From Mycobacteriales bacterium (lineage in GTDB: Bacteria > Actinomycetota > Actinomycetes > JAFAQI01), in contig DATAUF010000121.1 of the NCBI GenBank assembly GCA_036268405.1, forward strand, positions 9,086 through 73,085: a DNA stretch of 64,000 nucleotides, given 5' to 3'. This document shows, one piece after another, positions 31,860-50,946 of this stretch (its first letter is position 1; every line of letters begins with the position of its first letter). The notes under the pieces were generated by a model, which saw nothing but the letters and a program-made list of their open reading frames with translations, did no database searches and had not been told where the DNA came from. The translations under genes and the position numbers were made by a program.

Positions 31860-32234
31860 TTAGGCGGTCTGCGTCGGAAGGCCGGCGGCACGCCAGGCTC
31901 GGAAGCCTCCGGCGAGGTCGGTGGCGCGCCAGATGCCGAGCTGCTGAAGCGCCGACGCAGCGAGACTCGACGCGTACCCCTCATTGCAGAACAGCACGAT
32001 CCACGCGTCGCACGACGCGTCGGCGATACGCGCCTCGGATGCCGGGTCGAGTCGCCACTCCAGGACGTTGCGGTCGATGACCAGAGCTCCTGGGATGAGG
32101 CCTTCGATCACCCGGTTGACCTCGGGCCGGATGTCGACGAGGAGCGCACCTTCGCGCTGCGCGGCTGCGGCTTCCTTTGGGTCGAGCCGGCGCAGTCGCG
32201 TCCGCGCGTCCGCCAGCACCTCGTTGATCGTCAC
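31860..32234 (-). CDS. Single-domain rhodanese sulfurtransferase
   Basis: GTG 32234 overlaps the CDO-like stop (GTGA). LLVDIRPE...IVLFCNEGYASSLAASALQQLG with the active-site loop CNEGYAS. Only the 3' third of track ORF 31860-32660 is real. Confidence 0.75.
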   Translation of the reverse strand: MTINEVLADARTRLRRLDPKEAAAAQREGALLVDIRPEVNRVIEGLIPGALVIDRNVLEWRLDPASEARIADASCDAWIVLFCNEGYASSLAASALQQLGIWRATDLAGGFRAWRAAGLPTQTA

Positions 32235-32770
32235 GCCGAGATCGCTCCCTGGCGGGCGGACTGGCTGTCGTCCCGGGTCGACACCGTTCGCAGCCGGGCA
32301 AGCCCGCTCGGGTGTTGCGCGTAGAACGACATTGCGGACAACGGAGGGGAGTACGCATGCAGGCTTACCGCCGCGGCCGGTCCGGCGTTGTAGACGTCGT
32401 GCACCGTCGTGGGTGCGATCGCGACCGAGTTGCCGGCGGTCACGATGGTGGTCGTCGTGTCGAGCGGGGAGTCCGGGACCGCGCGGATCTCGGTAAGTGC
32501 GCCCTGCACGACGACGAATGCGCCCGAGGATCCCCCGTGGTCGTGCAGCTCCGTCCCCTGGCCGGTGAGCCAGCCGAGCAGCCAGATGTCGGCGGTGTCG
32601 TCGCCGTGCAGCCGTCGCCACCAACGCCCGCACGCATCGAAGCGCGCCAGGCTTTGCCACTGCGACGCGCGATCGGCTAGTCGCTCGAGGACGATCGCGA
32701 GCTGGTCTGCGTCGAGGCGCGACTGAGCCGGGAGAGTCCGTGTGGGCCGTAGTCGTTGGGGGAGTGCCAT
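32231..32770 (-). CDS. Cysteine dioxygenase type I-like cupin (thiol dioxygenase)
   Basis: WLLGWLTGQGTELHDHGGSSGAFVVVQGALTE...HDVYNAG...SLHAYSPPL has the cupin His triad pattern of CDO/3-mercaptopropionate dioxygenase homologs. Confidence 0.65.
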   Translation of the reverse strand: MALPQRLRPTRTLPAQSRLDADQLAIVLERLADRASQWQSLARFDACGRWWRRLHGDDTADIWLLGWLTGQGTELHDHGGSSGAFVVVQGALTEIRAVPDSPLDTTTTIVTAGNSVAIAPTTVHDVYNAGPAAAVSLHAYSPPLSAMSFYAQHPSGLARLRTVSTRDDSQSARQGAISA

Positions 32771-36705: not shown

Positions 36706-39536
36706 CGCGCCGCCGTCTGCGTCGGGCCGGTTCGCTGGCCCGACGCAGCGGCAGTGTGGTGCTGCTTGCCGCGGTCCTCGGACTCGCGACGGCGGCCCCC
36801 GCCGCCGCGCATCCTTACTTGCTCAGCAGCGACCCCGCGAGCGGCGCGATCCTGACGACCGCGCCGGGCCAGATCGACATCGGCTACACCGAAGGCCTCG
36901 ACCGCTCGTACTGCACCGTCGTCCTCATCGCACCGGACGGCCATCGGATCTCAACCCACCAGGCCTCCGCGGATGCCCCGACCGAGCTGTCCGTGGTCCC
37001 GGACTCTTCGCTGGCCGAGCAAGGTACCTACGCCGTGAACTGGACGGCGGTCGGCGACGACGGCCACACCGTGATCGGAAGCTTCAGCTTCAGCATCGGA
37101 CATCCTTCGGCCAACTCCGCGGTGCAGTCCGGCTCATCGGATGTCACCGGCAGTGCCTCCTCGCCACGAGGAGCGCAGCGGCTGCTGCGAACCGTCCTGC
37201 CGTTCGCATCCGTCGTCCTCGTGGCGCTGCTGCTGCTCGGCGGCGTTCTCGCCGCCACGGGACGGCGGGCGTCGCGAGTCCGATGGGGTGCGCTCGCGGT
37301 TGTTTTCGCGGTGGAGATCGCCCTTGCGGCCCTTGTCCTGTCCTCCGGCGGGCTCTCCGCCTTCGGCTCATCAGCCACCGGACGTCGGTTGATCGCGGAG
37401 CTCATTCTCACGGCCCTGGTGCTCCCCGTCGTCATCGACGGTGGCCGGCTCGCGGCCGGTCAACGCCCTTGCGGCTGGCGTCGCTGGCTCGCTGCGCTCA
37501 GTTCGCTCGGACTGCTGGTGGTGCTCGCCGACTCCGGTCACGCGGCTTCGCAGCCGAGCTCGCGCCGCGACCTCGTGCTCGCGGTCTACTCGGTTCACCT
37601 GCTGGCGGTCAGTGTCTGGATCGGCGCCCTGCTCGCGGTCATCCTCCGGATGCGATCAGGCGGCGGTGAGGCGCCGACGATGTCGACAGCAGATCCGAAA
37701 CGCTCGCTGCGCCCACTCGTTGCGGTGTCGCTGGTCGCGGTGCTCGGCACTGGGATCGCGACTACCGACTGGGGTCTGCGCACGCTCGGGGACGTCCCGG
37801 GCACCTTGTACGGCAAGCTCGCCGTCGCGTTGCTGATCTTGTTCGTCGTGATGGTCTGGCTCGGGATCGTGGGCTCGTCGATGATGCCGGCTGCCACGGG
37901 GGAGAGGAGTCGGCTGCCGCGACTCAGCGCCGCGCTGATGGGTGCGGAGGCGGTCGTCGCGGCGGCGGCGCTGCTGGTCGCGGGAATCCTTGGCCAGGTC
38001 TCACAGCCGCTCGACGAGCCGTACGCCTCGCAGGCCTATGCGACGTCGACCGGCGTACCGCTCGCCGTGACGGCGGTCGGCGCCGATTCGCTGGACGTCG
38101 CCACCCTCGCGCCCGGCATCGTCGGCCGAAACACACTTGTCGTCGAGGTGGGTCAGGCGGACGAGGACGACTTTCTCAGTCCGGCACCCGGCGTCCGTTC
38201 AGTGACGGCGACGTTGTCGTGTGGCGGATGCGGCGAGCCCGACCAGCAGGTCGCCCTTCATTCGACCGGCGGTGGTGCCGAGTGGACCGCCGACGTCTCC
38301 CTGTCCGAGGCGGCGTCGTGGCTGGTCACCGCGGCTGTGACGCGCTCGGGTGAGCGACCTGGCACCGCGCGGTTCGCCGAGCGCGTCTCGCCGGCCGAGC
38401 TTCCGCACCAGATCGTTGTCGGCGTCCCGACGTCACTGTCAGGACCGACCGGTGAGACCTGCCGTGACGAGATCCTCGGTCTCCAGGTGGCACTCGAGGA
38501 TCTCAACTCGCAGGCCGCCAACCACGGCGACCTGATCCGCGTCGTGGCGGTCGACCTGCACGACGGTGTCCCCGCGGCCATGGCGCGACTTCAGTCGCTC
38601 GGAGCCCGCCTGATCGCCTTGCCGTGCGGAACGGCGAGCGAGGTCCAGGGGGCGACAGCAGCCGCGCGCGACGCCGGTCTGCCGGTTGTCGCGGGTGCCG
38701 CGTCGATTCCTCAGGACCGCGCCGGCGTGTGGTCGACACAGCCGTCGTGGCGCGCCGAGGGCGCGGCGATCGGCACCCAGGCGCTACGCCAGCTCGCGAC
38801 CTCGGTCACCGTGCTCGTGGGCGACACGGTCGTCGACCGGACCGAGCTGGCCGGTCTGCGCTCGGCGCTGGCCGGGCGCCAGGTCGCGCTTCACATGACG
38901 GGATTCCCGTCGAAGCCGCTCCCGTTCGTCTCCGCATTGCAGCGCCACAACGCTGACGTCGTGGCGTTGCTCGGCGATCGGCATGAGGCCGCGCCGGTTG
39001 TTCACGCGTTCTCTGCGGTGTCACAGATCAACGGCTGGGTGCCTTCCCACGGCATCCTTGCGTCCGCTCAGCTGATGAGTACGGACTTCATCGACGCCGC
39101 GGGCACGATCACCAGACTCGGGGGGATCGAGTTCGCGAGCGACATCAATCCGTTCGACCCGGTGTCGCAGTACTACGCACAGCGCCTTCGCGCGCTCGCG
39201 CCCGGCGTACGGCCCTCCTTCGACGGACTGCACGGCTATCAAGCGGGTCTCGCGATCGCGCAGGCACTGCGCGATGGCGGCGGACGTCCGTCGTCGAGCT
39301 CTTTGATCAGCCTGCTCGGCAGCCGGTTCGCCAAGTTCACGGTCGGGAGCTACCGCCTCGGCTGGAATCAGACTGGAGGCACCTCGACATCGCTGGCGTT
39401 CTTTCGATCGACATACGTGAACCCGATGGCGATGCCGTCCGACACGCCTGGCGGCGCCTCAGCCCTGGCCCACGAGGGCACCTTCCTCGACAGCGGCGGC
39501 TTCGAGCAGGTCGCGCCGTTCCGGATCACCTCATGA
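36702..39536 (+). CDS. CopC - CopD - type I periplasmic-binding-protein triple fusion
   Basis: GTG 36702 overlaps the upstream stop (GTGA). The signal peptide ends AAPAAA|HPYLLSSDP, so the mature N-terminus is His as in Cu(II)-binding CopC. CopC body: GTYAVNWTAVGDDGHTVIGSFSFSIG. Then ~8 hydrophobic CopD-like segments. C-terminal ~380 aa are Peripla_BP_6-like (QIVVGVPTSLSGPTGE...LIALPCGTAS...). Confidence 0.75.
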   Translation: MTRRRLRRAGSLARRSGSVVLLAAVLGLATAAPAAAHPYLLSSDPASGAILTTAPGQIDIGYTEGLDRSYCTVVLIAPDGHRISTHQASADAPTELSVVPDSSLAEQGTYAVNWTAVGDDGHTVIGSFSFSIGHPSANSAVQSGSSDVTGSASSPRGAQRLLRTVLPFASVVLVALLLLGGVLAATGRRASRVRWGALAVVFAVEIALAALVLSSGGLSAFGSSATGRRLIAELILTALVLPVVIDGGRLAAGQRPCGWRRWLAALSSLGLLVVLADSGHAASQPSSRRDLVLAVYSVHLLAVSVWIGALLAVILRMRSGGGEAPTMSTADPKRSLRPLVAVSLVAVLGTGIATTDWGLRTLGDVPGTLYGKLAVALLILFVVMVWLGIVGSSMMPAATGERSRLPRLSAALMGAEAVVAAAALLVAGILGQVSQPLDEPYASQAYATSTGVPLAVTAVGADSLDVATLAPGIVGRNTLVVEVGQADEDDFLSPAPGVRSVTATLSCGGCGEPDQQVALHSTGGGAEWTADVSLSEAASWLVTAAVTRSGERPGTARFAERVSPAELPHQIVVGVPTSLSGPTGETCRDEILGLQVALEDLNSQAANHGDLIRVVAVDLHDGVPAAMARLQSLGARLIALPCGTASEVQGATAAARDAGLPVVAGAASIPQDRAGVWSTQPSWRAEGAAIGTQALRQLATSVTVLVGDTVVDRTELAGLRSALAGRQVALHMTGFPSKPLPFVSALQRHNADVVALLGDRHEAAPVVHAFSAVSQINGWVPSHGILASAQLMSTDFIDAAGTITRLGGIEFASDINPFDPVSQYYAQRLRALAPGVRPSFDGLHGYQAGLAIAQALRDGGGRPSSSSLISLLGSRFAKFTVGSYRLGWNQTGGTSTSLAFFRSTYVNPMAMPSDTPGGASALAHEGTFLDSGGFEQVAPFRITS

Positions 39537-40177
39537 CTGTCACGCGGTCCGGAGCCGGCTGCGCCGCGACTCTCGCATTGCTCATCACAGTCTCCGGGTG
39601 CGGCGGCGGCTCGACCCCGCTGCCGTCGCACCCGGATCCAACGTCATCGGCCACCGGCTCCTCCGCCGCGGCGCCGATCTCGACCGGCTGCTCACCGAAC
39701 CTGGTTCCCACGGGCTACACGATCGACGCGAAGCACTCCGGCAAGCTGACCGCCCACAGCTACAGCGCAGCAGCCGAGGTCCAGGCTGCGCTCGAGTACG
39801 ACCAGCTGCAGTCCGGCGCGCGAGAGGTGTTCGTGCACTCGGCCGGCCGGCGCACCGACGGCGTCGCGACCTGCGTCGCCATGCAGTTCCCCTCTGCCCA
39901 TCTCGCCGGACGGTTCTTCATGTCCTACCGAGCGCTCCGCAAGCAAGCCGGGTCGCTCGTGGCGGAGGTCTCGATCCCTGGCGGTGCAAGCGGCCTGTCA
40001 GGTGCAACCGGCTACCTCGAGAGGGACCAGTCATTCCGCGGCTACCAGATCGCTTCGACCGATGTCATCGAGTTCTCCGGGCAGGACGGGCGCAGGCTCG
40101 ACATCGTGTCGGTGGCCGGCGCGACTCCGTCGCGGAGCCTCGGACACAAGCTGCTCGTCGCGATGGCGAATCAGTGA
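39533..40177 (+). CDS. Lipoprotein, unknown function
   Basis: ATGA overlap with the CopCD-PBP stop. Lipobox LLITVSGC. Confidence 0.55.
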   Translation: MTVTRSGAGCAATLALLITVSGCGGGSTPLPSHPDPTSSATGSSAAAPISTGCSPNLVPTGYTIDAKHSGKLTAHSYSAAAEVQAALEYDQLQSGAREVFVHSAGRRTDGVATCVAMQFPSAHLAGRFFMSYRALRKQAGSLVAEVSIPGGASGLSGATGYLERDQSFRGYQIASTDVIEFSGQDGRRLDIVSVAGATPSRSLGHKLLVAMANQ

Positions 40178-40848
40178 TGAGCATCAACCGCACAGTCGCG
40201 GCCGTGATCGGCGTCGCTCTGCTGGGAGCGGTGTCCGCGGGCTGCAGCAGCAGCGGAAGCAACGGGGCCGCGGCACCGACGATCTCGCCTTCGGCCACCG
40301 GCAGCAGCCAGGTCACGCCCGCCTCCGGTCTGCCCACCCCGCTCGCCGGCTCGACCCTGACCGCGGCCGATGTGGCCGACCCAGGCCTGCCGTCGAAGAT
40401 CGGGCCGGGCAAGCTGTCGAACGCGACGATCAAGAAGCTCGTCCAGTACTTCGAGGACAACGTCGCCAAGGCGTACGCCGACGGAGATGCCAACGCGCTC
40501 GAGCACTACCTGGCGGGTCCGATGCTCTCCGGCAACCGCGCCACGATCACGTTGCTGGCCAAGCAGGACAAGCTCAACATCTTCCGGATCCGGGTGCAGA
40601 AGATCACGGCGGAGACGAACGAGGCCGAGCACGTCATCATCGACATGACCGGCGACATGGTCTTGAACTACTTCATCGACAGCAAGACCCACAAGATCCT
40701 CGAAAACGGTCTTCCCGGCCCCAGCCAGGTGCAGTTCGCGATCTTCCTCGACCGCAACCCCAAGACCAACACGTGGTACTGGACGGGGGAGCAGTCCGAG
40801 ACCACTGGCGGTGCGACGAGCGGCACGACCGTGGAGCAGGCGCCGTGA
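40177..40848 (+). CDS. Lipoprotein with NTF2/ARC6-IMS-like C-terminal domain
   Basis: TGATG junction. Lipobox GAVSAGC, Ser/Pro/Ala linker, then YLAGPMLSGNRATITLLAKQDKLNIFRIRVQKI...VIIDMTGDMVLNYF. Only the 3' part of track ORF 39598-40848 is real. Confidence 0.55.
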   Translation: MSINRTVAAVIGVALLGAVSAGCSSSGSNGAAAPTISPSATGSSQVTPASGLPTPLAGSTLTAADVADPGLPSKIGPGKLSNATIKKLVQYFEDNVAKAYADGDANALEHYLAGPMLSGNRATITLLAKQDKLNIFRIRVQKITAETNEAEHVIIDMTGDMVLNYFIDSKTHKILENGLPGPSQVQFAIFLDRNPKTNTWYWTGEQSETTGGATSGTTVEQAP

Positions 40849-41801
40849 TCTCGCATGCACCGCTAGCGGCCGCGACAGCGCTCGCCGGCTGTCTGTTTGC
40901 CGCTGCTCCCGCGACGGCGGGGACCGCGGGTCCGCCCGGTGTGCTGCAGCTCACCGGAGTGCTCCACCTGTCCAAGGGCACGTGTGACGGCGACAAGCCC
41001 GGCGGCAGCTATCTGTCGGTGACGTTCGGCACCAAGGTCATCGGCAACCCTGCGTCGAGCTGCGAGCACGGCGCGGTCACGCTGCTTTCGCCTGGTCGAC
41101 CGGGCCTGTCGACAGACGCGTTCACACCGCTGTCCGACGAGGCGTTCGACAGTCGAGGCAACCCGGTCGCCACGTCGTTGACGCAGCCGGTCCGGTTCGG
41201 ATCCCACCTGCTCAGCCTGGTGAGCTCCGGGCAGGATCTGCAGGACGCGCCGACCGGCCGGGCGACGTTCGCGTTTCCGCATCTCTACGTCACCGGGACC
41301 AAGGTCCTCGCCGATGTCCGGTCGATTCAGGCGCTCTACGACGGCGCGGCCGGGACGACGTGCGCATCCGGCGCGGGGAGTGGCTGCTGGCTGATCGGAG
41401 CCGAGCGCGCGACGGGGACGTACGACGCGCAGACACATCGGGTGACGCTGTCCTGGTTCTCCGGGCAGTCCTTCGTCCAGGAGTCGGCCGGTACCGTCGT
41501 CCACCTGTCGGGAGTGTTCGTCGGAGCCAAGCCCAAGCCGCTCAAGCGGGGCACGGCCGTCGACCTCGGCACCTCCAGCTTCGCCGCGGGACCCGCGCCC
41601 AGGTCGAACGCTCGCACGATGGCTGCTCGTCACCGGCGCGGCAGTACTCGAACCGGCGCCCAGCAGGCGACGGCATCCGCCCGCGCGGCAACCACCGCCG
41701 CGTCCTCCGGCAACCGTCGGCTCGCGGCGATCCTCGCCGCCGCCATGCTTCTCGTGCTCGCGGCGTCGCATGGCGCCGCTCTTCGTAAGGGACGCTCGTG
41801 A
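40845..41801 (+). CDS. Uncharacterised secreted protein family, paralog 1 (C-terminal TM anchor)
   Basis: GTGA junction. Family motifs: LTGVLHLSKGTCDG..GGSYL, TLLSPG, EAFDSRGN, ATGTYDAQTHRVTLSWFSG, VHLSGVF. C-terminal basic/Ala-rich linker plus TM LAAILAAAMLLVLAA. Confidence 0.6.
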   Translation: MISHAPLAAATALAGCLFAAAPATAGTAGPPGVLQLTGVLHLSKGTCDGDKPGGSYLSVTFGTKVIGNPASSCEHGAVTLLSPGRPGLSTDAFTPLSDEAFDSRGNPVATSLTQPVRFGSHLLSLVSSGQDLQDAPTGRATFAFPHLYVTGTKVLADVRSIQALYDGAAGTTCASGAGSGCWLIGAERATGTYDAQTHRVTLSWFSGQSFVQESAGTVVHLSGVFVGAKPKPLKRGTAVDLGTSSFAAGPAPRSNARTMAARHRRGSTRTGAQQATASARAATTAASSGNRRLAAILAAAMLLVLAASHGAALRKGRS

Positions 41802-42502
41802 CCTCGCAACGTCGGCTCGCCGGACTGGCCGTCACACTCGCCGTCGTTGTCGCCGGATGTAGCGGCGGGCACGGCTCGTCGAACGCGACGTCGACGAAGC
41901 TGACCGGGCTGTTCAAGATCACGCCGGGTGCCTGCGCGACGGCGAAGGGGAAGCCCACCGGCAGCTACCTCGTTGTCATCTCCGCCGCGGCCGGCAAGAC
42001 CGTGGGAAACAAGCACGGCGGATGCGTGAACCCGGCATACACGTTGTTGCGTCCCGGGGCCGACGGCGGCCTCGTCACCGGTGAGTTCCAGGACGTCTCA
42101 GGTGCGGCGTTCGACAGCCACGGCAACGGCCGGGCCAACCGGATCGTGGTGCCGACCGCCTTCGGGTCGCGGCGCTTCGGGATCGCAACGAACACCCACG
42201 ACCAACAGGGAGCCGCGAACGGTCAGCCCGCGTACCCGCGACCGGCGGCAATCGCGACCGGCTCGTCGCTACGCGTAGACCTCCGTTCACTCGTCATCAC
42301 CTACGGCGGGCCTGCAAGCTCGACCTGCGAACAGGCATTCGGGGTCGGGTGCTGGGAGCTCGGCTCGGAGAACGCCACCGGGACCTATGACGCGACCAGT
42401 GCCCACTACCTCATCAACTGGTTCTCGGGGGAGTCCTTCACGGCGAAGGGTGACTCCATCGAGGTGCACCTCGAAGGCACATTCGTCCCGCAGTCCGGGT
42501 GA
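41798..42502 (+). CDS. Uncharacterised secreted protein family, paralog 2 (lipoprotein)
   Basis: GTGA junction. Lipobox VVVAGC. Motifs: LTGLFKITPGACA..TGSYL, YTLLRPGADGGLVTGEFQ, AAFDSHGN, ATGTYDATSAHYLINWFSG, VHLEGTFVP. Confidence 0.65.
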   Translation: MTSQRRLAGLAVTLAVVVAGCSGGHGSSNATSTKLTGLFKITPGACATAKGKPTGSYLVVISAAAGKTVGNKHGGCVNPAYTLLRPGADGGLVTGEFQDVSGAAFDSHGNGRANRIVVPTAFGSRRFGIATNTHDQQGAANGQPAYPRPAAIATGSSLRVDLRSLVITYGGPASSTCEQAFGVGCWELGSENATGTYDATSAHYLINWFSGESFTAKGDSIEVHLEGTFVPQSG

Positions 42503-43095
42503 GCAGCCGCGTCGTAAGTGCGCTGGCAGCCGGCATTTTTGTCGTGCTCTGCGCCGCGGTGCCCGTCGCGGCGTTCACGCATCAGGGCCGCGCCGACGTC
42601 CCCGCTGCGCGAGTCGCGCCGCTGTCGACCGCCGATCGCAAAGCGCTCCTCGCCGCGCAGAAGCTGATTGCTGATCTGCCCGAGGCGCTCGCCGAGGTGC
42701 CACGCGCGGGCGCGGATGTCGCCGGCATCGGTCCGTCGGCCGCCCGCGCCACCCTCGGCGGCTCCGCCGAGCTTCGGCCGCTGGCCGAAGCGGTCGATGG
42801 ACGCGTGCCCGCCGTGACGTTGCTCGAAGCGTCGTATCGAGCCCTGCTCGATGACCGCCCGCTGCCGGACCCGGTCGCGTTGTCGAGTGCACTCCAGACG
42901 TTGCAGATCGTCGAAGGCGACGTGCTCCCGGCGGTGCGCGTCATTGCCTTGGAGCACGGTCGGCATGTGTCGGCGGGGGGAGCGCTCGACGCGGTCGAGC
43001 GCGACCCTGCGACATCAGCACTCGGCCGGCTGCTCGTCGACTGGCAGCAGGTCTACGGCGTCTTCGTGCTCGTCGAGCAGGCCGCTGCCCGCTGA
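42499..43095 (+). CDS. Secreted/membrane-anchored Ala/Leu-rich protein, unknown function (last gene of the operon)
   Basis: GTGA junction. N-terminal hydrophobic segment ALAAGIFVVLCAAVPVAAF. Confidence 0.45.
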   Translation: MSSRVVSALAAGIFVVLCAAVPVAAFTHQGRADVPAARVAPLSTADRKALLAAQKLIADLPEALAEVPRAGADVAGIGPSAARATLGGSAELRPLAEAVDGRVPAVTLLEASYRALLDDRPLPDPVALSSALQTLQIVEGDVLPAVRVIALEHGRHVSAGGALDAVERDPATSALGRLLVDWQQVYGVFVLVEQAAAR

Positions 43096-43137
43096 GCTCG
43101 CTCCGCCCGTCGCCCAGCGTTCGGCCGGGCCGCCACC

Positions 43138-43845
43138 CTAGCCGGCCGGGGTGAAGTGACCCTGCAGGTGCCAGTAGCCGGAGAAGCCGTTGAACGGACC
43201 ACCGACGATCTGGCTGGTCCACGTCAGGACGAACTTCCCGGTCGTCGCGTCGTACGTCCCCGTCACCGGCGTGGTGTTGCCCGGCATCGATCCGCCTGGC
43301 TTGGGTGAGCCCTGGTTGAAGTACTGGTTGTTCCAGGACGCGCCCCACGACTCGATCTGACCCGACAGCTTGCCGTTCGAGTCGGTGATCGACGGAGCCG
43401 GGACGGTGCGCTTGCTCTGCGGATCGACCTTGTCGGTCTCGATCCCGAAGTTGATGGCGGTGAACGACTGCGGCACCGTGATCAGATCCGCGAGTGAGTT
43501 GCCGTTGGCGTCGAACGCCTTGGCGGGGCTCGGCTGGAATGTCCCCGTGGTCAGCCCGCCGTCCTTGCCAGGACGCTCGGCGGAGAACGACGGGTCCTTG
43601 CACGTCGAGTCCGGGTTGGTGAAGTACGGGCCCTTCGCGAGCGTGCCGTTCGCCTCGATCATTCGGAAGTAGGTGCCCGTCGGGCTTGCGGCCTTGCAGT
43701 TGCCGGCGGTGAAGTGGAACGTCCCGACTAGGGGCTTGCCACCACTGGCCGGCGTGCCGCTGCCTGAGGAGCCGCCACCGCAAGCTGCTGCTGCGAAAGC
43801 GAGCGCGGCGGCTGAGACTGCGAACCGTGCGGTGCGGGTGGTCAT
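43138..43845 (-). CDS. Uncharacterised secreted protein family, paralog 3 (lipoprotein)
   Basis: ATGA overlap with the upstream membrane-protein stop. Lipobox LAFAAAAC. Motifs: LVGTFHFTAGNCK..TGTYF, GKDGGLTTGTFQ, KAFDANGN, WNNQYFNQGSPKPGGS, VTGTYDATTGKFVLTWTSQ, WHLQGHFTP. Only the 3' part of track ORF 43138-44370 is real. Confidence 0.65.
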   Translation of the reverse strand: MTTRTARFAVSAAALAFAAAACGGGSSGSGTPASGGKPLVGTFHFTAGNCKAASPTGTYFRMIEANGTLAKGPYFTNPDSTCKDPSFSAERPGKDGGLTTGTFQPSPAKAFDANGNSLADLITVPQSFTAINFGIETDKVDPQSKRTVPAPSITDSNGKLSGQIESWGASWNNQYFNQGSPKPGGSMPGNTTPVTGTYDATTGKFVLTWTSQIVGGPFNGFSGYWHLQGHFTPAG

Positions 43846-44786
43846 GACTCTTCCTTCTTGTTGAAGACGGCGATACCGGCAACAAGCAGGCCGGGGATGA
43901 CGAAGAACCACGGGAAGAGCTTGAACGACGGCAGCGCCGCAATCGCCTGGTAGCGCGGCTCGCTGTCGCTCATCGCCCCGATCATCGGCGTCATGTCGTT
44001 GAGGAGGTGGACCCACCGGGTGTCCAGAGTCGTGACGGCTGGGTAGTCCGTGGCGAGCTGCCGACCGGTCAAGCCTGTCGAGTGCAGCGCCGGAACGATG
44101 TCTTTGCGGATCGCGCCCTGGCCGACTGCCATCGTCGAGAAGAAGCCCTGGATCTGCTCCACCTTCTGCGTCGTCTCGATGTTGCTGAACGTCGACATCA
44201 TCGTTGCGCCCTTGGGGGCGCGCGTGAACATCTGGAAGGCGACCGGCGCAAGGATCAGCCCGATGCCCAGCACCCCAAGCGCGATGCGCACCGGTGTCGC
44301 GGCCAGTCCGCCGAGCAGACCGAGGATGGCGAAGCCGGCGATCAGGAGGCCGGGAATCACGAAGAACCACGGGAAGAGCCGGAAGCTCGGCAGCGCGGCG
44401 ACCGCCTGGTAGTCCCCGAGGCTGCCGTGCACCTTGTCCAAGAGGTCGGTCATCGTCGAGTCGATCTCAGGCCACTGCCTCTGCAAGCCGCGGTAGGTCG
44501 AGAGGTCCTGGCGGGCCGAGTTCGGCCGCTTCGCCCGCAGCCGGGGAATCGCCTTGGTGTCGACCTCGTGGACGGCCTCGCGGATCTGGCCGATCTCCTG
44601 CTGGAACCCATCCAGGCGCTGGTCTGTCATGAACGGCTTGAAGTCCTGGAGCATGACTGCGCCCTTGGGGGCCCGCGTGAACATCTGGAATGCGACGGGT
44701 GCGGCGGCGAGACCGATGCCGATCACGGCGGCGATCACCAGCAGTACTCCCGTTCGGCCGCTCGGCCGGCCTGCGATCGATCCCAT
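43842..44786 (-). CDS. Internally duplicated 4-TM membrane protein, unknown function
   Basis: Start at ATG 44786 (MGSIAGRPSGRTGVLLV...). Two ~150-aa units, each TM-APVAFQMFTRAPKGA-(~100-aa loop)-ALPSF(R/K)LFPWFFVIPGLL(I/V)AG. Confidence 0.65.
   Translation of the reverse strand: MGSIAGRPSGRTGVLLVIAAVIGIGLAAAPVAFQMFTRAPKGAVMLQDFKPFMTDQRLDGFQQEIGQIREAVHEVDTKAIPRLRAKRPNSARQDLSTYRGLQRQWPEIDSTMTDLLDKVHGSLGDYQAVAALPSFRLFPWFFVIPGLLIAGFAILGLLGGLAATPVRIALGVLGIGLILAPVAFQMFTRAPKGATMMSTFSNIETTQKVEQIQGFFSTMAVGQGAIRKDIVPALHSTGLTGRQLATDYPAVTTLDTRWVHLLNDMTPMIGAMSDSEPRYQAIAALPSFKLFPWFFVIPGLLVAGIAVFNKKEES
43870..44786 (-). repeat. Intragenic tandem duplication (period ~453-459 bp) inside the membrane-protein gene
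   Basis: gaagaaccacgggaagagc occurs at 43902-43920 and 44361-44379. cgcgtgaacatctggaa occurs at 44221-44237 and 44674-44690. Flanking sequence is clearly similar by eye. Confidence 0.6.
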
Positions 44787-44831
44787 AATATGGAGTAATA
44801 TACCTGAGTAAGTGGGGTTAGACTGCACGGT

Positions 44832-45881
44832 ATGGCTCGGACAGGAGTGCGCGTGCCGATGAAGCATCGATCATGGCCGGCGGTCGCGGCCGTTGCGATG
44901 TCGATCTTTGGCGTCGCCGCCGCGACCGCGGGCGCAAGTCCCGCGCTGGCGTCGAACCGGCTGACCGGGACGCTCTACCTCTCCCCGGGCGGCTGCTCCC
45001 ACGGGTCGGTCTCCGGCACGTACATCCAGATGATCCTTCCCAGTGGCTCGACGTCGGGCCCGTACATGTCCAACAGCGACTCCTCGTGCTCCAACCAGGC
45101 CTACACGCTGCTGTCCCCTGGCAGCGAGGGCGGGCTGCGCTTCGGCTCCTACCAGCCGCTGCCGTCGCCGGCGTTCGACTCGGCCGGCAACGCGACCGCA
45201 CACGAGATCTCCGCTCCGGCGCAGTACGAAGGCACCGGCTTCGCGACCTCGACAAACCCGGTGGACCCGCAGACTCACGCCAAGGTCCCGGCCCCGTCGC
45301 TGACGATTCACGGCAGCAAAGTGAGCGCCGACGTCCGCAGCTTCTCAGTGTCGTGGAACAAGCAGTACTTCAACCAGGGCTCCCCGAAGCCCGACGGCAG
45401 TGACCCGGGGATCACGCGGCCCGCGACCGGCACCTACGACGCGGCCAGCGGCGCCATGACGTTGAACTGGACGAGCGAGGTCGTCGGCGGTCCCTTCGAC
45501 AAGTTCACCGGCTCATGGCACCTCGTCGGCCGCTTCGTGCCGACCTCAGGCAGCACCTCGAGCGGTGGCGGACACGCCGGAAGTGGTGGTGGCTCGTCGG
45601 GTGCCGCGGGCGTGGCGGCGACCGCGACGGCTGCTGCCACCGCGACCGCGAACGCCGGTGGAAAGCACGTATCTGCAGCGCCAACAACGAATGCCCGCGC
45701 CTCGTCCCAGCAAGCGGCAGCCACCGCGACCCAGGCAGCCGTATCGACCGTTGTCTCCAAGCACACGTGGCGCGTGTCGTGGTGGCTGATCGCGCTTGCG
45801 CTCGCGTTGGCGGTTGCGGGCTTCGGAGGCTTGGCGGCGCTAGGACGTGCGGGACCGACTGACTCGGTGCCGAAGTCATGA
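44832..45881 (+). CDS. Uncharacterised secreted protein family, paralog 4 (signal peptide + C-terminal TM anchor)
   Basis: Motifs: LTGTLYLSPGGCS..SGTYI, YTLLSPGSEGGLRFGSYQ, PAFDSAGN, WNKQYFNQGSPKPDGS, ATGTYDAASGAMTLNWTSE, WHLVGRFVP. Then a Gly/Ser/Ala/Thr linker and TM WWLIALALALAVAGFGGLAAL. The true start may be GTG 44853 (5 nt after AGGAG) or ATG 44859. Confidence 0.65.
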   Translation: MARTGVRVPMKHRSWPAVAAVAMSIFGVAAATAGASPALASNRLTGTLYLSPGGCSHGSVSGTYIQMILPSGSTSGPYMSNSDSSCSNQAYTLLSPGSEGGLRFGSYQPLPSPAFDSAGNATAHEISAPAQYEGTGFATSTNPVDPQTHAKVPAPSLTIHGSKVSADVRSFSVSWNKQYFNQGSPKPDGSDPGITRPATGTYDAASGAMTLNWTSEVVGGPFDKFTGSWHLVGRFVPTSGSTSSGGGHAGSGGGSSGAAGVAATATAAATATANAGGKHVSAAPTTNARASSQQAAATATQAAVSTVVSKHTWRVSWWLIALALALAVAGFGGLAALGRAGPTDSVPKS

Positions 45882-46630
45882 AGATGCTTGGACTCTCGAC
45901 TCGCGTCATGCGAGCCGGCCTGACGGCGCTGATCGTGCTCGACCTTCTTGCGGTTGCCGCCTTTGCCGTCCGTCGTACCACGGTGACGGTGCGGACGACT
46001 CGACCGGCGGCCAGCTCGAGCCCGACAGATGTCAGCGCGGCGCCGCCTAGCAGTGCCCCTTCGACGGTCGCGCCATCGGCACCCGCGGTCGCTATCGCGG
46101 CGGGCGGCGGCAGCGGTTCGTCGGCCGTGCCGACCAGCGATGGCCACGGCACATCCACGGCGCCTGCCCCACCTCCCAAGAGCGGCATCCCGCCAGTCCG
46201 GATCGCCGCGATCGGAAAGTGCCCGGTCAAGATCTCGACGCCGGACCAGATCGGCGGCGTGCAGTCGCTGGTGGCGTTCGCCCCGGCGTTCGGCCCGTTC
46301 TCTGCGGAGGCCTTCGCGGCTGCATCGGCGTACCAGCCGGAGCTCGAGCTGCTCGGCCCGATCCTCGCGCAGTACCCCAAGGCAGCACCGGTTCTCGACC
46401 CGCTGCTGGCTCCCGTGCTGGGGTTGTTCGCGCAGGGTTCGACCACGCTGTTCGGTGTGCTGGCGCCGTTCTATGCGCCGCATCGGACCGAGGTGCTGTC
46501 GGCGGAGACACAGCTCGCCGCGGCGCTCGCGCCGTACTCCGCGAAGCTGGCAGGAACACCTATGGCCGGTTGTGTGGTTGAGCTAGAGGCAGCTCTGGTC
46601 GGCGACACCAAGAGCGACAAGAGCAAGTAG
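45878..46630 (+). CDS. N-terminally anchored Pro/Ala/Ser-rich envelope protein, unknown function
   Basis: ATGA overlap with the paralog 4 stop. TM LTALIVLDLLAVAAFAV, a PAS-rich linker, and an Ala/Pro/Leu-rich C-terminal domain. Confidence 0.5.
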   Translation: MKMLGLSTRVMRAGLTALIVLDLLAVAAFAVRRTTVTVRTTRPAASSSPTDVSAAPPSSAPSTVAPSAPAVAIAAGGGSGSSAVPTSDGHGTSTAPAPPPKSGIPPVRIAAIGKCPVKISTPDQIGGVQSLVAFAPAFGPFSAEAFAAASAYQPELELLGPILAQYPKAAPVLDPLLAPVLGLFAQGSTTLFGVLAPFYAPHRTEVLSAETQLAAALAPYSAKLAGTPMAGCVVELEAALVGDTKSDKSK

Positions 46631-46634
46631 GAGG

Positions 46635-47168
46635 ATGACGGACGTGGCCAAGGTGTTCGGTTTCCCCAACCCCGTCAACGAGAAGGCGGCCCGCACGGTC
46701 GCCGGCGTCGTGCTTGCAGTGACCGTTGTCACGCTCGTGCTGAGCGTCACGGCAGGACATGCCTGGCTGTGGATCACCGCGGCGCTCGCCTACGGCTTCG
46801 TTGCCCGCGTGCTCACGGGGCCCACGCTCAGCCCGCTCGGCAGGTTCGCGATGACGGTGGTCGCGCCGCGACTCGGCGAACCGCGGCCCGTTGCCGGACC
46901 GCCGAAGCGGTTTGCTCAGGGAGTGGGCGCGGCGTTCACCCTGAGTGCGGTGGTCCTGCTCGCGCTCGGCCACCCGCTCGGCACCCAGATCCTGCTCGGC
47001 TTCATGGTCATCGCTGCGGGCCTCGAGTCGATCTTCGCCTACTGCCTGGGATGCAAGGCCTTCGCCGGCTTGATGCGGTTCGGCCTGATTCCCGAGGAGG
47101 TCTGCGAGGCGTGCAACGACATCTCGCTGCGCGCCCCGATCCAGACGGCTGGGGCCCTGACCCGGTAG
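46635..47168 (+). CDS. DUF4395 family membrane protein
   Basis: FPNPVNEKAAR..., 4 TM segments, and conserved Cys pairs AYCLGCKAF and EEVCEACND, as I recall for DUF4395. Confidence 0.65.
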   Translation: MTDVAKVFGFPNPVNEKAARTVAGVVLAVTVVTLVLSVTAGHAWLWITAALAYGFVARVLTGPTLSPLGRFAMTVVAPRLGEPRPVAGPPKRFAQGVGAAFTLSAVVLLALGHPLGTQILLGFMVIAAGLESIFAYCLGCKAFAGLMRFGLIPEEVCEACNDISLRAPIQTAGALTR

Positions 47169-47190: not shown

Positions 47191-48306
47191 ATGCGTACGC
47201 CGTTGTGTGACCGCCTTGGCATCGAGTTCCCGATCTTCGCGTTCAGCCATTGCCGCGACGTCGTCGCTGCGGTGACCAATGCCGGCGGCATCGGAGTGCT
47301 CGGCGCCGTTGCGCACAGCCCGCAGGGTCTCGAGACCGACCTGGCGTGGATCGATGAGCAGGTCGGCGACAAGCCGTACGGTGTCGACCTGCTGCTACCG
47401 GTTACGTTCGCCCCGACCGGCAGTGCGCAGCCCCGACAGCTCGATGACCTGTTCCCCGCCGAGCAGGTCGACTTCGTCGAGGATGTGCTGACCCGTCACG
47501 GGGTGCCGGCGCTGCCGGAAGGCGTCGAGGCGCACCGAGCTTCGATGAGCGTCTCGCCGGAGGCCAACAACACCCTGCTCGACATCGCGCTGGACCACCC
47601 GATCCGCCTGCTGGCCAGCGCTCTTGGTCCGCCCTCGGCGGAGCTCATCGACCGCGCGCACGAACGCAACATCGTCGTTGCTGCGCTGGTCGGCGCCGCG
47701 TCGCACGCCCGCCGGCAGCAGGAGGCCGGCGTCGACCTGATCGTCGCGCAGGGCACCGAGGCCGGGGGTCATACCGGCATGGTCTCGACGATGGTGCTCG
47801 TGCCCGAGGTCGTCCGTGCGGTGCACCCGTTGCCGGTGCTCGCGGCAGGGGGGATCGTGACCGGTGCGCAGGTCGCGGCTGCGATGGCGCTCGGCGCGCA
47901 AGGCGTGTGGTGCGGGTCGGTCTGGCTCACGACCGCCGAAGCCGAGACCGACCCGGTCGTCAAGCAGAAGATGCTGGCTGCCTCTGCCAGCGACACCGTC
48001 CGCTCTCGTTCGCTGACCGGAAAGCCCGCGCGGATGCTGCGTACCGCGTGGACCGACGAGTGGGAGGCACCGGACGCGCCCGCGACGCTGCCGATGCCGT
48101 TGCAGACGATGCTGGTCGCGACCGCGCAGCAGCGGATCGCCCGCGACGCGAAGACCGCTGGCAGCGGAGCGGAGTCATTGGCGACGTACTTCGTCGGACA
48201 GGGCGTCGGCCTGATGGACAAGATCCGCCCGGCGCGCGAGATCGTCGAGGAGATGGTCTCGGGCTATCTCGAGGTCGCCGAACGCTTCGCGAGCCAGGTC
48301 CGCTAG
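47191..48306 (+). CDS. Nitronate monooxygenase (NMO / 2-nitropropane dioxygenase-like, FMN)
   Basis: LGIEFPIFAFSHCRDVVAAVTNAGGIGVLG...VDLIVAQGTEAGGHTG...LAAGGIVTG. Confidence 0.8.
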   Translation: MRTPLCDRLGIEFPIFAFSHCRDVVAAVTNAGGIGVLGAVAHSPQGLETDLAWIDEQVGDKPYGVDLLLPVTFAPTGSAQPRQLDDLFPAEQVDFVEDVLTRHGVPALPEGVEAHRASMSVSPEANNTLLDIALDHPIRLLASALGPPSAELIDRAHERNIVVAALVGAASHARRQQEAGVDLIVAQGTEAGGHTGMVSTMVLVPEVVRAVHPLPVLAAGGIVTGAQVAAAMALGAQGVWCGSVWLTTAEAETDPVVKQKMLAASASDTVRSRSLTGKPARMLRTAWTDEWEAPDAPATLPMPLQTMLVATAQQRIARDAKTAGSGAESLATYFVGQGVGLMDKIRPAREIVEEMVSGYLEVAERFASQVR

Positions 48307-49010
48307 GCCGTCTTGATCTTGAACGCGCCGCCTGGTGTCGTCAGCAGACCAGGGGCCGCCTTCGCCTCCAGGCGGTACGTCACGGTCACGTGTCTCGCTG
48401 AGGTCCAGGTAAAGGTCGTCGCCCAGGCGTGAAGCTTGGACTTGTACGTCAACGTCTCGACGGTCTTCCAGCGACTTCCGCTCTTTCGCTGCAGCACCAT
48501 GTGGCCTTTGGCCGGTCGAGGCTTTGCGTTGCCGGTGACGGTGACGCTCTGGTGGCGAACTGCCGTGTTGGGCGACGTCCAGGTGAGCGACTTGTAGGGC
48601 TTCGCCGCCGGCGTCGACGTCACGTGGCGGAACGTGAGGACTGCGGCGCCGCCGGCAGGCTCGTTGTCACCTGTCGTGAGTGTCTCGGTCCATACGTGAC
48701 CTTGGGTGGAGCCAGGCGGGCCCTCGAAGTCGCCGCCGAAGTCGTCGGAGGTGAGCGTGTACGGCGGATTGACGGTGCCGTCGCCGCCGGCCTCGTTCAG
48801 GGACCACGGCTGGGTGTCGGGCATGGTCGATGTCACGGTCTCGTTCATGTTCGACGTCAACGCAATCGTGACCACGCACGTATCGGCGTCCGATGAGACG
48901 CAGGTGAACGACTGAGCCCCCGTCGCCGTCGCGGGCACGGCGGCCGACGCGACGAGCAGCAGCGCGCCCGAGGTCACGGAGACGATCGCCATCATTTGTC
49001 GCACGGTCAT
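48303..49010 (-). CDS. Secreted protein, unknown function (C-terminal Ig-like domain)
   Basis: Signal peptide IVSVTSGALLLVASAAVPATATG. C-terminal VTVTGNAKPRPAKGHMVLQRKSGSRWKTVETLTY is beta-sandwich-like. Confidence 0.5.
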   Translation of the reverse strand: MTVRQMMAIVSVTSGALLLVASAAVPATATGAQSFTCVSSDADTCVVTIALTSNMNETVTSTMPDTQPWSLNEAGGDGTVNPPYTLTSDDFGGDFEGPPGSTQGHVWTETLTTGDNEPAGGAAVLTFRHVTSTPAAKPYKSLTWTSPNTAVRHQSVTVTGNAKPRPAKGHMVLQRKSGSRWKTVETLTYKSKLHAWATTFTWTSARHVTVTYRLEAKAAPGLLTTPGGAFKIKTA

Positions 49011-49055: not shown

Positions 49056-50453
49056 CTAACAGCCGGTCGAGATCCGAATCTGGTGTGCCTTGTTGGTCAG
49101 CGGCGTGTTCGGCATCTTGAAGGCCCCGCCGCCGAGAGCAACGCCGCAGGTGCCGACGTAGATGCCGGGAAGCGGGTAGACGGGCAGCGCCGGCGAGCCC
49201 ATCGCGTCCGGGTCCTCGAAGAACTGGAAGCCAGGCTCGTTGCTCACGGTGTGGGCCTCGTGCTTGCGCCAGTAGTCCATTCCGCCCTTGGTGTTCTTGG
49301 TGCCACTCGACGACGGGTTCTTCTTCGAGGTGTCGCAGTTTGCCGGTGCATCCGGCTGCGGCTTGGTGACGTTGCTCTGCTCGCCGCCGCTGTTGCAGCT
49401 GTAGGGGTCCCACTTCTTGCCGGTGTAGTCGAATGAGTCGCGTTCGGAGTTCTTGCCGTTGCCCTTGCAGCGGTCCTGCTGGCGCACCTCGCCGGTGTTG
49501 GCGTCGCAGCCTTGGTAGATCATCTGCTTCTCGGTGGTTGCGCCGAGGCAGATGCCGTCCGCGCAGAAACCGGTCCCGGCGTTGAGCAGGCCCTCGGGCT
49601 GAGTCAGCGTGCCTGACTGCGCAAGCCGCTGCGGCGTGAAGATCAGCATCACCGCGCCACCGTCGGACGGTCCGACCACTGAGCCGTGCGACAGCGCGGA
49701 GCTGAGCGGACCCTCGCCGTCGTGCTCGCCGTTATCGCTGTTGTCGTCCATGCCGTAGTAGAGGCTGAAACCCTCGGTCAGGACCTTGGAGACGTTCTGC
49801 TCCAGCCCGGTGTCGAGCGAGAGCTTGTTCTGGCCGATGTCGCCACCCGGGATCGACGTGCACTTGTAGGGGAACGACGGAATCATGGCCGCGATCGGGC
49901 AGTAGAACTGGTAGTAGTCCCAGTCGAGCGCGAAGCCTGCGCCGGCCTTGTTGTCGCCGCACCCGTACTTTGTCTGGTCGTGGGCCTTCGAGACGGACTC
50001 GGGCTTCTTGCCCTCCGGCACCGCACCGCCCTTGGTGCCGTCCGTGTTGACCGCGAGACATCCCGCGTGGGTCGCTGAGCTCTGCCCGGGGTAGCCGATC
50101 GAGTAGAGGGTCTTGGTCCCCTTGGAGTTCTCGTCGTTCGGCGACTGGTCGATGCCGAACTGCAGCCAGTCGATGTTGGTCGCGCCGTGGTCACCGAAGC
50201 GCGGAGAGTCGTTGTAGCCGTTGTTGGGGTTGCCGTTGGTGATCCCACCGCTTTCCAGCGTCAGCTGGGCGGTGTGGCAGCCCGGATAGGTCTTGTACTG
50301 CGGCGTGTTCCATTCGCTGGCGTACCACGGGCAGTCCTGCTGTGGTGAGCCGTAGCCGCCACCGCTGACGGCGTAGGCCACGCCGCCCGCGGCCATCGAC
50401 AGCAGAACCGCGGCGATCCCCGTGAGGGACAGAGTCGGGATCAAACGGCGCAT
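49056..50453 (-). CDS. Cys-rich secreted protein, unknown function
   Basis: Start at ATG 50453 (MRRLIPTLSLTGIAAVLLSMAAGGVAYA). About 15 Cys. Composition is unusually rich in Asn/Lys/Tyr/Gly/Asp for this genome. I recognise no family. Confidence 0.55.
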   Translation of the reverse strand: MRRLIPTLSLTGIAAVLLSMAAGGVAYAVSGGGYGSPQQDCPWYASEWNTPQYKTYPGCHTAQLTLESGGITNGNPNNGYNDSPRFGDHGATNIDWLQFGIDQSPNDENSKGTKTLYSIGYPGQSSATHAGCLAVNTDGTKGGAVPEGKKPESVSKAHDQTKYGCGDNKAGAGFALDWDYYQFYCPIAAMIPSFPYKCTSIPGGDIGQNKLSLDTGLEQNVSKVLTEGFSLYYGMDDNSDNGEHDGEGPLSSALSHGSVVGPSDGGAVMLIFTPQRLAQSGTLTQPEGLLNAGTGFCADGICLGATTEKQMIYQGCDANTGEVRQQDRCKGNGKNSERDSFDYTGKKWDPYSCNSGGEQSNVTKPQPDAPANCDTSKKNPSSSGTKNTKGGMDYWRKHEAHTVSNEPGFQFFEDPDAMGSPALPVYPLPGIYVGTCGVALGGGAFKMPNTPLTNKAHQIRISTGC

Positions 50454-50511
50454 CCGGGAGCCTCCAGCTACTGGGTCCACAACGTCCATGACCATGACGC
50501 CGACGTCATGG

Positions 50512-50946
50512 TCATCGTTGACCATTTCGACGTTTGCCGACAACCTCCTGCGCCGCCTCTGGGCTTGCGAACACCAGCCAACCGTCGACCAGCGCCTCTT
50601 TGACGTCGGCGACCCGCGCCTGCTTCAGCTCGATGAGGATCGCGGCGTAGCCGTCGAAGTGCGGGATGGTGAAGAACCCGGCCTTGCCGGCCGCGAGCAC
50701 CGCTTCCTTTTCCGCGAGATCGGCCACCCGGATCGCGACGATCGGGTCGCCCGGCACCGGCTCCTCGCCGTAACGGCGGATGTCGGCCTTGCTGAAGGTG
50801 CGCTCCCAGGCGAAGGTCTTGTCGGCCAGCCGCCAGGTCCGCTGTCCGCGCCGGTCGGCTTCTTCGACCCCGGGCAGGGCGAGCGCAATCTCCGCGACCC
50901 GCGCCAGCGTCACCACGCCCGGCACGTTATCGCGACGACTTGACAC
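50512..50946 (-). CDS. MmcQ/YjbR family DNA-binding-fold protein
   Basis: VAEIALALPGVEE....RTWRLADKTFAWERTF...FFTIPHFDGYAAILIEL. Confidence 0.55.
   Translation of the reverse strand: MSSRRDNVPGVVTLARVAEIALALPGVEEADRRGQRTWRLADKTFAWERTFSKADIRRYGEEPVPGDPIVAIRVADLAEKEAVLAAGKAGFFTIPHFDGYAAILIELKQARVADVKEALVDGWLVFASPEAAQEVVGKRRNGQR

Follow-up and report, generated by a model that had tools for sequence, protein, structure and literature searches.

Bacterial methanethiol oxidase (MTO) is a periplasmic copper enzyme whose operons carry a tethered copper chaperone, Sco1/SenC, together with MauG (PMC5739008). Like PCuAC (ECuC) and YcnI, Sco1/SenC is a small extracytoplasmic protein held by a lipid or a single transmembrane (TM) helix, and chaperones of these kinds are encoded in operons with CopC-CopD/YcnJ proteins and a secreted copper enzyme. 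A different handover is described for the eukaryotic TTYH proteins, for which a role in moving lipids from membranes to a carrier and back is now favored, with TTYH2 handing lipid to APOE (PMC12328215, PMC8361169). Here we analyze a 64-kb stretch of a Mycobacteriales genome (contig DATAUF010000121.1, ~68% GC; hereafter the window) that encodes four paralogs, named par1, par2, par3, and par4 in coordinate order. They constitute a previously undescribed family of membrane-tethered extracytoplasmic all-beta proteins. Subtype A (par1/par2) is translationally coupled into an operon encoding an SBP56-like enzyme and a CopC-CopD protein, and subtype B (par3/par4) has a dedicated genomic partner, the four-helix membrane protein TM4. 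By comparison with Pfam, NCBIfam, the PDB, and BFVD, the family and its module are new, and no feature that clearly defines a known family is found in the paralogs or in TM4.

The paralogs share with the copper chaperones their small size, location, tethering, and operon company, and the par1/par2 type, like Sco1/SenC, has an invariant Cys pair and a His. No relation of sequence or fold accompanies this likeness. Sco1/SenC has a thioredoxin fold with CxxxC and a distal His, whereas the paralogs are all-beta, carry Cx7C in the par1/par2 type, and match no Pfam or NCBIfam model. The models for PCuAC (DUF461), YcnI (DUF1775), and CopC likewise gave no match; the H(M)x10Mx21HxM motif and the N-terminal His brace are absent from the conserved columns, the Foldseek matches of the beta domain include no solved member of the three, and par3/par4 have no plausible copper-ligand cluster. 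Like TTYH1-3, TM4 is a membrane protein of small size and helical build, with TM helices that run into a large extracellular helical bundle, and its pairing with a separate carrier-like protein recalls TTYH2 and APOE. TTYH proteins, however, have five TM helices and no internal duplication, and the partner of TM4 is a tethered beta domain rather than an apolipoprotein. We read the Sco1/PCuAC/YcnI and TTYH-APOE comparisons as analogies of role and architecture only. The SBP56-like protein resembles MtoX in being secreted, in a partial match that spans an invariant HH pair, and in the copper-handling genes alongside, but it is nearly twice as long, and neither a Sco1 nor a MauG gene is present beside it here.

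An undescribed family of tethered all-beta proteins

All four open reading frames (ORFs) lie where an earlier note, made from the sequence alone, had placed them: par1 at 40845-41801, par2 at 41798-42502, and par4 at 44832-45881 on the plus strand, and par3 at 43138-43845 on the minus strand. Their products align collinearly from end to end over ~200 residues, with 42 invariant columns. Pairwise BLASTP gave E=4e-42 for par1/par2, 4e-66 for par3/par4, and 5e-14 to 1e-27 across the subtypes. The proposed split into two subtypes is borne out by motifs that are invariant in the orthologs of each. The par1/par2 type, in these two and 15 relatives, has four invariant Cys (C47, C73, C173, and C181 in par1), including TC-x6-GCW, as well as an invariant WFSGxSF; an extra Cx7C is invariant in this subtype and a His nearly so. 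In the par3/par4 type, WNNQYFNQGSPKP and GGPF are invariant. One of the shared motifs that had been listed, TLL(S/R)PG..GGL, is imperfect in par1, which lacks GGL, and in par3, which reads SAERPG. A profile hidden Markov model (HMM) and tblastn both returned exactly four copies in the window. Orthologs of par2 were located at L082:11321-12034, L085:10993-11712, and L087:7492-8190, where L-numbers denote sampled loci.

The conserved Cys pair of subtype B was considered as a persulfide carrier and dropped. Both Cys vanish at once in P0125, a fusion of TM4 with the domain, which suggests that the pair is more likely a structural disulfide.

The earlier note could assign the domain to no family, and neither could our searches. 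Pfam, NCBIfam, and PDB sequences gave no match for the single proteins, the family profile, or 80 members scanned individually at E<=1; the best Pfam-A/NCBIfam E-values (0.02-0.7) fell on unrelated families, none of them common to more than two of the 80 members, and the best PDB sequence reached E=1.5 against the profile. Structure prediction had also been proposed, and par3, our reference, was modeled confidently by AlphaFold2 from an 80-sequence alignment (mean predicted local distance difference test score (pLDDT) 88.6, above 93 in every core block; predicted template modeling score 0.81). The model is all-beta with ~15 strands. Foldseek found no PDB structure at E<=0.001 (best E=0.35, template modeling score (TM-score) <=0.24) and no neighbor in the viral BFVD library, and the core thus maps to no well-characterized family. 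Among the weak matches, calycin-type barrels are overrepresented, as are barrel lipoproteins (the group includes nitrobindin, lipocalins, BcnA, avidin, TbpB/HpuA, and LpqH), but no match is significant. Such proteins, YceI among them, are likewise all-beta and often lipid-anchored, and the strand order in the C-terminal half of the beta domain is compatible with their up-and-down topology. The beta domain is larger, however (~200 residues), has an extra N-terminal sub-domain, and aligns with LpqH over only ~90 residues. Across the PDB and BFVD, the predicted structure provisionally represents a new fold.

A word-indexed search returned 232 relatives, and an exhaustive HMM search of 1.84 billion representatives returned 497 clusters (50% identity) at E<=1e-3. 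All named relatives are called "hypothetical protein", none has a Pfam domain, and nearly all clusters come from soil or peat Actinomycetota. For genomic context, a scan of one genome per species yielded 80 loci. All but one are titled Actinomycetota, the exception (L044) being a metagenome-assembled genome (MAG) labeled Proteobacteria. Hosts include Mycobacteriales MAGs, Acidimicrobiales (many from peat, palsa, bog, and fen), Nocardioides sp. Root240 and Root682, Marmoricola, Aeromicrobium, Leucobacter weissii, Solirubrobacterales, Baekduia, Conexibacter stalactiti, and Gaiellales.

The domain is extracytoplasmic and carried on alternative anchors. As the earlier note had described, par2 and par3 have lipoboxes (VVAGC and AAAAC), and par1 and par4 end in hydrophobic helices followed by basic residues. 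The lipobox pattern [LVI][ASTVI][GAS]C is present in par2, par3, and ~60 of 187 single-domain relatives, and absent from par1 and par4. The lipobox-like LAGC that had been pointed out in par1 does not stand: its Cys is not conserved in 12 orthologs, all of which have ordinary Sec signals, and par1 is therefore not a lipoprotein. Among the same 187 relatives, ~60 have the tail-less lipobox form, 65 start with just a hydrophobic segment, and 34 end in a TM-bearing tail (median length 111 residues). The choice of anchor is a property of the whole family rather than of this cluster. Each subtype in the window pairs one short-leash lipoprotein, with 14-16 residues between the lipid-modified Cys and the first strand (a 16-residue Gly/Ser tether in par3), with one long-leash copy, in which a Sec signal and beta domain are followed by a low-complexity linker of 65-80 residues and a C-terminal TM anchor (~65 residues in par1; ~80 residues rich in Ala, Ser, Gly, and Thr in par4). 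This asymmetry of leashes extends throughout the family. With no known family, a confident model lacking PDB neighbors, an extracytoplasmic location, and local amplification, the suggestion of a new envelope protein family is supported.

Genomic partners of the two subtypes

Subtype A is part of a seven-gene plus-strand operon: the SBP56-like gene (34339-36705), a CopC-CopD-Peripla_BP_6 gene (36702-39536), genes for two lipoproteins of 214 (39533-40177) and 223 residues (40177-40848; MSINRT...SAGC, conserved in L001 and L006), par1, par2, and p198 (42499-43095), which encodes a secreted helical protein. Neither lipoprotein nor p198 has a family match. The first junction, read directly, is a 4-bp GTGA overlap, and the remaining five overlap by 1-4 bp, with par1 overlapping both the upstream lipoprotein gene and par2 by 4 bp. 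The operon recurs as a unit in L082, L085, L086, and L087, with p198 kept after the par2-type gene in all four; the paralogs are accordingly not scattered and unlinked to it in other genomes, the outcome that would have spoken against the earlier proposal. L085 carries the operon without TM4 within several kb. The link to a copper/sulfur operon that had been drawn for the cluster is real for par1/par2, whereas the primary partners of par3/par4 are TM4, to which the earlier note had given only a brief mention, and a DUF4395 protein.

The 788-residue SBP56-like protein is probably a distant relative of methanethiol oxidase. It matches the NCBIfam MtoX model NF052453 at E=1.7e-9 over 87 residues, with 36.7 bits against a 650-bit cutoff. 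The EPHHMQ motif, which contains the HH pair, is invariant in SBP56-like proteins and lies within this partial match. PF05694 was detected on ~14 of the 120 best homologs; the window protein has no Pfam match, and neither it nor its profile matches PDB sequences. The 945-residue product of the second gene is an unusual triple fusion of a CopC domain, CopD-type helices, and a C-terminal Peripla_BP_6 domain (Leu/Ile/Val-type), and this architecture is kept in L082, L084, L085, and L086.

The SBP56-like/CopCD pair also adjoins the par3/par4 module in ~9 loci that span several orders. Nocardioides Root240 and Root682 have p250 (described below) and par4 on one strand, diverging from TM4-par3-SBP56like-CopCD-DUF4395; L084 has the order TM4-par-par-SBP56like-CopC...PBP, and the pair is within a few kb in L003, L006, L046, and L050.

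TM4 (43842-44786, minus strand) is a dedicated, near-universal genomic partner of the par3/par4 type. A tblastn search with every window protein against the 80 loci found it in 61, where it nearly always immediately precedes a par3-type gene in the same orientation; in the window the two genes overlap by 4 bp. More than 1200 homologs exist, all hypothetical, many of them with only a weak match to the SPW repeat (PF03779); window TM4 does not match this model, and P0151 scores 21.7 bits against its 31.5-bit cutoff. The protein is a duplication of the unit TM helix, ~105-residue helical domain, TM helix. By the positive-inside rule, both helical domains are predicted to lie outside the membrane, on the same side as the beta domains. 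FQMFxRAPxGxxMM is invariant after TM1 and TM3, as is NDMTPMIGAMSD in the second repeat; TM4 has no Cys and eight invariant Met, including an M-x2-M-x3-M helix face. Its AlphaFold2 model is all-helical (pLDDT 93.8), and its only high-probability Foldseek matches are TTYH1/2 (E=2e-3 to 0.07, probability up to 0.99). Because the TM-scores are just 0.2-0.3, with root-mean-square deviations (rmsd) above 10 A, this modeled resemblance is one of architecture and not of membership, and no sequence similarity to TTYH was found. TM4 and the beta domain are also fused in both orders, all extracytoplasmic parts staying outside in each: P0151 is a domain, a C-terminal TM helix, and TM4 (41% identity to window TM4, E=1e-69), and P0125 is TM4 followed by the domain, with DUF4395 directly after.

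Two further genes complete subtype B. Downstream of par4 on the plus strand lie p250 (45878-46630), whose product has an N-terminal TM anchor, a Pro/Ala-rich linker, and a conserved C-terminal domain of ~130 residues without a family match, and a DUF4395 gene (46635-47168), which encodes a four-TM protein (PF14340, E=2.9e-33, 115 bits against a 24.5-bit cutoff). DUF4395 was found in 38 and p250 in 20 of the 80 loci, and a 143-residue protein in L081 is homologous to p250 residues 115-243. The C-terminal end of the DUF4395 protein carries CxxC-x16-CxxC, placed in the cytoplasm by the positive-inside rule, and weak PF11127 (YgaP-like_TM) matches, which fall on one half or the other depending on the member, suggest two YgaP-like (DUF2892-type) TM hairpins in tandem. 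A 45-bp AT-rich spacer (44787-44831) separates the divergent units TM4-par3 and par4-p250-DUF4395 in the window. Many loci have par4-type genes after par3-type genes, and the Acidimicrobiales arrangement is co-directional, TM4-par3-par4-DUF4395-p250. TM4, par3/par4, DUF4395, and p250 form a module conserved across Actinomycetota, and the four paralogs do not stand alone as lipoproteins.

In 16 Solirubrobacterales-type loci (L047, L049, L051-L053, L055-L057, L059, L060, L062-L066, and L068) the module takes a variant form. In all but one of the 16, TM4 carries an N-terminal fusion to a squalene-hopene-cyclase-like (terpenoid-cyclase-like) alpha/alpha toroid domain, and the order is toroid-TM4, family member, and, in all 16, a MotA/ExbB-like proton-channel protein (examples are L053:5402-7900 and 8704-9384, and L057:10704-14101). 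In L057, the only variant locus read further, small ExbD-like, MoxR-type AAA ATPase, and CoxE-like VWA ORFs follow, assigned by eye. The hosts of this variant are Solirubrobacterales, Conexibacter, Baekduia, and Leucobacter.

Proposed leashed carriers and their possible cargo

We propose that the beta domains would be carriers or adaptors held on leashes on the outward-facing side of the membrane. The short-leash copy would dock on a membrane component (TM4, or the CopC-CopD protein for subtype A), the long-leash copy would reach into the wall zone, and together they would deliver a small cargo to the secreted SBP56-like enzyme and its relatives or collect it from them; each TM4 repeat could hold one beta domain. 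The likeliest cargo would be copper for maturation of the SBP56-like enzyme, a role analogous to that of Sco1/SenC in proteobacterial mtoX operons. Copper is favored because the position of the paralogs in the operon resembles that of Sco1/SenC, because subtype A has the invariant Cx7C and His, because the TM4 helices are Met-lined, and because distant members of the family are fused to repeats of the MopE motif (PF11617). We assign leashed carriers or adaptors with copper as their cargo a probability of roughly one in three (about 0.35).

Several observations weigh against copper. The par3/par4 type lacks the conserved cluster of Cys, Met, and His typical of copper sites, with one near-invariant His only, and the joint loss of its single Cys pair in P0125 points to a structural role for that pair. 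Most loci that pair TM4 with a paralog have no copper gene within 10 kb, those with the SBP56-like/CopCD pair numbering ~9, and no CsoR, CopZ, or P-type ATPase was found nearby. Sulfur genes are the commoner neighbors, the PF11617 motif is only putatively metal-binding, and the likeness of TM4 to TTYH suggests a hydrophobic cargo. A more elaborate proposal, which we consider rather unlikely, would join TM4, the two differently leashed beta proteins, DUF4395, and p250 into one envelope machine, in which a TTYH-like dock hands copper or sulfur cargo to the short-leash carrier and the long-leash carrier then takes it across the wall zone to the methanethiol-oxidase-like enzyme.

Reduced sulfur is the alternative that fares best, and we regard it as possible though doubtful. 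The beta domains, TM4, and DUF4395 would here take up or relay a species such as sulfane sulfur, thiosulfate, sulfite, or a volatile organosulfur compound that the SBP56-like enzyme makes or consumes outside the membrane, thereby feeding or draining a cytoplasmic set of persulfide dioxygenase-rhodanese, FAD oxidoreductase, and cysteine dioxygenase. Counts of genes within 10 kb favor sulfur over copper. At least one of five sulfur-related items occurs in ~31 of the 80 loci: a metallo-beta-lactamase-rhodanese fusion (14 loci), a NAD_binding_9 FAD protein (18, often beside the former), cysteine dioxygenase (10), a family 2A encapsulin with cysteine-desulfurase cargo (6-8), or SBP56-like/CopCD (7). 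Further loci have YeeE-type Sulf_transp, TauE, sulfatase, sulfotransferase, and Rrf2 genes. In the window, a metallo-beta-lactamase-rhodanese fusion of the CstB-like persulfide dioxygenase type (32806-34197, minus strand) diverges from the seven-gene operon, and a type I cysteine dioxygenase gene (32231-32770, minus strand) lies close by. Genes for DUF4395, a Pyr_redox_2 FAD protein, rhodanese, Sulf_transp, and Rrf2 also stand beside SBP56-like homologs, as in two loci reached from such homologs: L091 (rhodanese, SBP56like-CopD-x-DUF4395, FAD oxidoreductase) and L090 of Carbonactinospora thermoautotrophica (SBP56like-x-Sulf_transp-Rrf2). DUF4395 itself has four Cys and its weak matches to YgaP-like, membrane-rhodanese TM segments, and some MTOs are reported to release sulfane sulfur (PMC10936201). 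Yet the core proteins have no recognizable sulfur-carrier motif: the Cys pair of subtype B behaves like a structural disulfide, and TM4 is free of Cys. Proteins induced by sulfur starvation are typically not Met-rich, unlike TM4, and the need for a carrier is not obvious, as H2S and methanethiol freely cross membranes.

We find it improbable that the module transfers a lipid or another hydrophobic ligand, with a Tweety-like TM4, barrel-like beta domains as carriers, and copper and sulfur neighbors that reflect co-regulation only. The Foldseek matches of TM4 to TTYH1/2, the lipid transfer from TTYH2 to APOE, the calycin-type barrels and barrel lipoproteins among the weak matches of the beta domain, and the Solirubrobacterales fusion of TM4 to a terpenoid-cyclase-like toroid with an ExbB/ExbD-like motor after it are all consistent with such a role. 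The structural side of this argument is offset by the low TM-scores and large rmsd of the TTYH superposition, by five TM helices in TTYH against four here, and by beta-domain matches that all have E>0.3 and TM-scores <=0.24. Lipid-metabolism genes do not recur nearby, and the tight coupling of par1/par2 to SBP56-like/CopCD would be left unexplained.

About as improbable, in our judgment, is a passive role for the beta domains, as envelope scaffolds or wall-associated proteins that space or anchor TM4 or secreted enzymes and bind no ligand themselves. Our searches revealed no signature of catalysis or metal binding in them, their long low-complexity linkers are typical of wall-spanning tethers, and tandem multi-copy forms of 480-1011 residues occur. 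A mere spacer, however, would sit poorly with polar and aromatic surface-type motifs (WNNQYFNQGSPKP, GTYD, NPDS, and DPQ) that are strongly kept across orders at 45-60% identity; this conservation argues for a specific binding function, and the subtype-specific loop swap, Cx7C versus NQGSPKP, suggests differing specificities. It is very improbable that the four genes are an artefact of non-coding ORFs in high-GC DNA or a known family missed by our searches. A crude gene call based on GC content at third codon positions (GC3) missed par1, par3, and par4, but this approach is unreliable for these genes and gave way to six-frame clustering and to public annotation, which includes the same genes. 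Hundreds of homologs keep the motifs and synteny across orders, the AlphaFold2 confidence exceeds 95 over the core, and scanning 80 members individually against Pfam gave nothing consistent.

The tethered beta domain and its four-TM partner are two families without annotation, Pfam model, or PDB structural relative that together form one soil and peat actinobacterial module. Because this module is wired to the SBP56-like enzyme, the CopC-CopD protein, and genes of sulfide and cysteine oxidation, it is a specific candidate for accessory machinery that copper-dependent organosulfur oxidation is missing in Gram-positive bacteria, where the Sco1 and MauG genes of proteobacterial mtoX operons are absent. 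Uncharacterized actinobacterial lipoproteins are many; few come with a confident model without PDB neighbors, an obligate membrane partner, fusions in both orders, and a reproducible copper/organosulfur link in lineages that dominate soil and peat. The full cluster is present in the cultured Nocardioides sp. Root240 and Root682, which makes the idea directly testable. Should the envelope machine exist, its carriers of metal or sulfur would have a new fold, and methanethiol and sulfide would be turned over by a new route in abundant soil and peat Acidimicrobiia, Solirubrobacterales, Nocardioidaceae, and Mycobacteriales. If the copper/sulfur idea fails, two new families that could enter Pfam would still stand, along with a probable new fold and with bacterial proteins partly Tweety-like in architecture.

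Divergent relatives, promoters, and other neighbors

The family reaches beyond the tethered single-domain form, as judged from the architectures of P0150, P0247, and P0230 (L088:930-3854). These proteins of 800-1000 residues, whose sequences do not look actinobacterial, contain two or three shortened domain copies, with Cys-rich Cu-binding_MopE motifs (PF11617) and thrombospondin type 3 repeats in alternation between them. Highly divergent paralogs that lack Cys altogether (25-32% identity) occur in the same Solirubrobacterales-type clusters (L047:10730-11434, L053:4470-5216, and relatives), and in several of these loci a large secreted RCC1-repeat protein follows them.

The divergent TM4/par4 promoter of the close relatives L001 and L002 contains a GC-rich palindrome, TAACCCCATCTACTGGGGTATA, of which the window has a degenerate copy (44799-44820). 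It resembles CsoR/RicR boxes, but its 7-nt spacer is longer than in RicR TACCC-N4-GGGTA, the window copy is degenerate, and neither the window nor the loci yielded a CsoR-like gene; CsoR/RicR regulation was rejected, and the palindrome carries no weight in our argument. A universal motif upstream of TM4 was likewise discarded, as k-mer enrichment over 56 upstream regions was dominated by coding conservation. An IscR-like box upstream of TM4 is lineage-restricted. In several Acidimicrobiales loci, TM4 homologs have an upstream -35 box that is overlapped by a palindrome (e.g. TTGACTAAATCAGTCGG) matching the IscR type-1 consensus of E. coli. The same palindrome is found beside genes for cysteine dioxygenase, encapsulin, and luciferase-like monooxygenase, which hints at a shared Rrf2-type regulon; Rrf2 genes adjoin in L001/L082, L002, L003, L035, L041, and L090. 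Copies of the palindrome were noted at L016:2632, L076:8859, L011:8782, L029:3996, and L007:643, and also at L036:4654, L037:2976, L022:13571 and 3971, L024:11264, and L035:4610.

Beyond the cysteine dioxygenase gene, the window encodes a 979-residue protein (27416-30355) with a NAD_binding_9 FAD/NAD(P) domain, whose homologs in the 18 loci are about half as long. Because its equivalent in L091 carries Pyr_redox_2, it may be a sulfide or persulfide oxidoreductase. A DUF222 gene (30443-31699) lies between the FAD-protein and cysteine dioxygenase genes; DUF222 proteins often accompany genes for HNH endonucleases or mobile elements, and this one may flag a site of rearrangement within the island of sulfur genes. 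On the other side of the cluster, 48303-49010 and 49056-50543 (minus strand) encode predicted secreted proteins of 235 and 495 residues, with no Pfam match and no counterpart in the 80 loci. SfnG (dimethylsulfone monooxygenase) was dismissed as a recurrent neighbor, since it is genuine only in L004 and the others are generic luciferase-like monooxygenases at ~30% identity. The encapsulin loci belong to Acidimicrobiales (L022, L036, L037, L040, L041, L042, and L061; e.g. L036:2672-3652 and L041:13046-14923), and their shell and cargo proteins match NF041162 and NF041166, both above cutoff.

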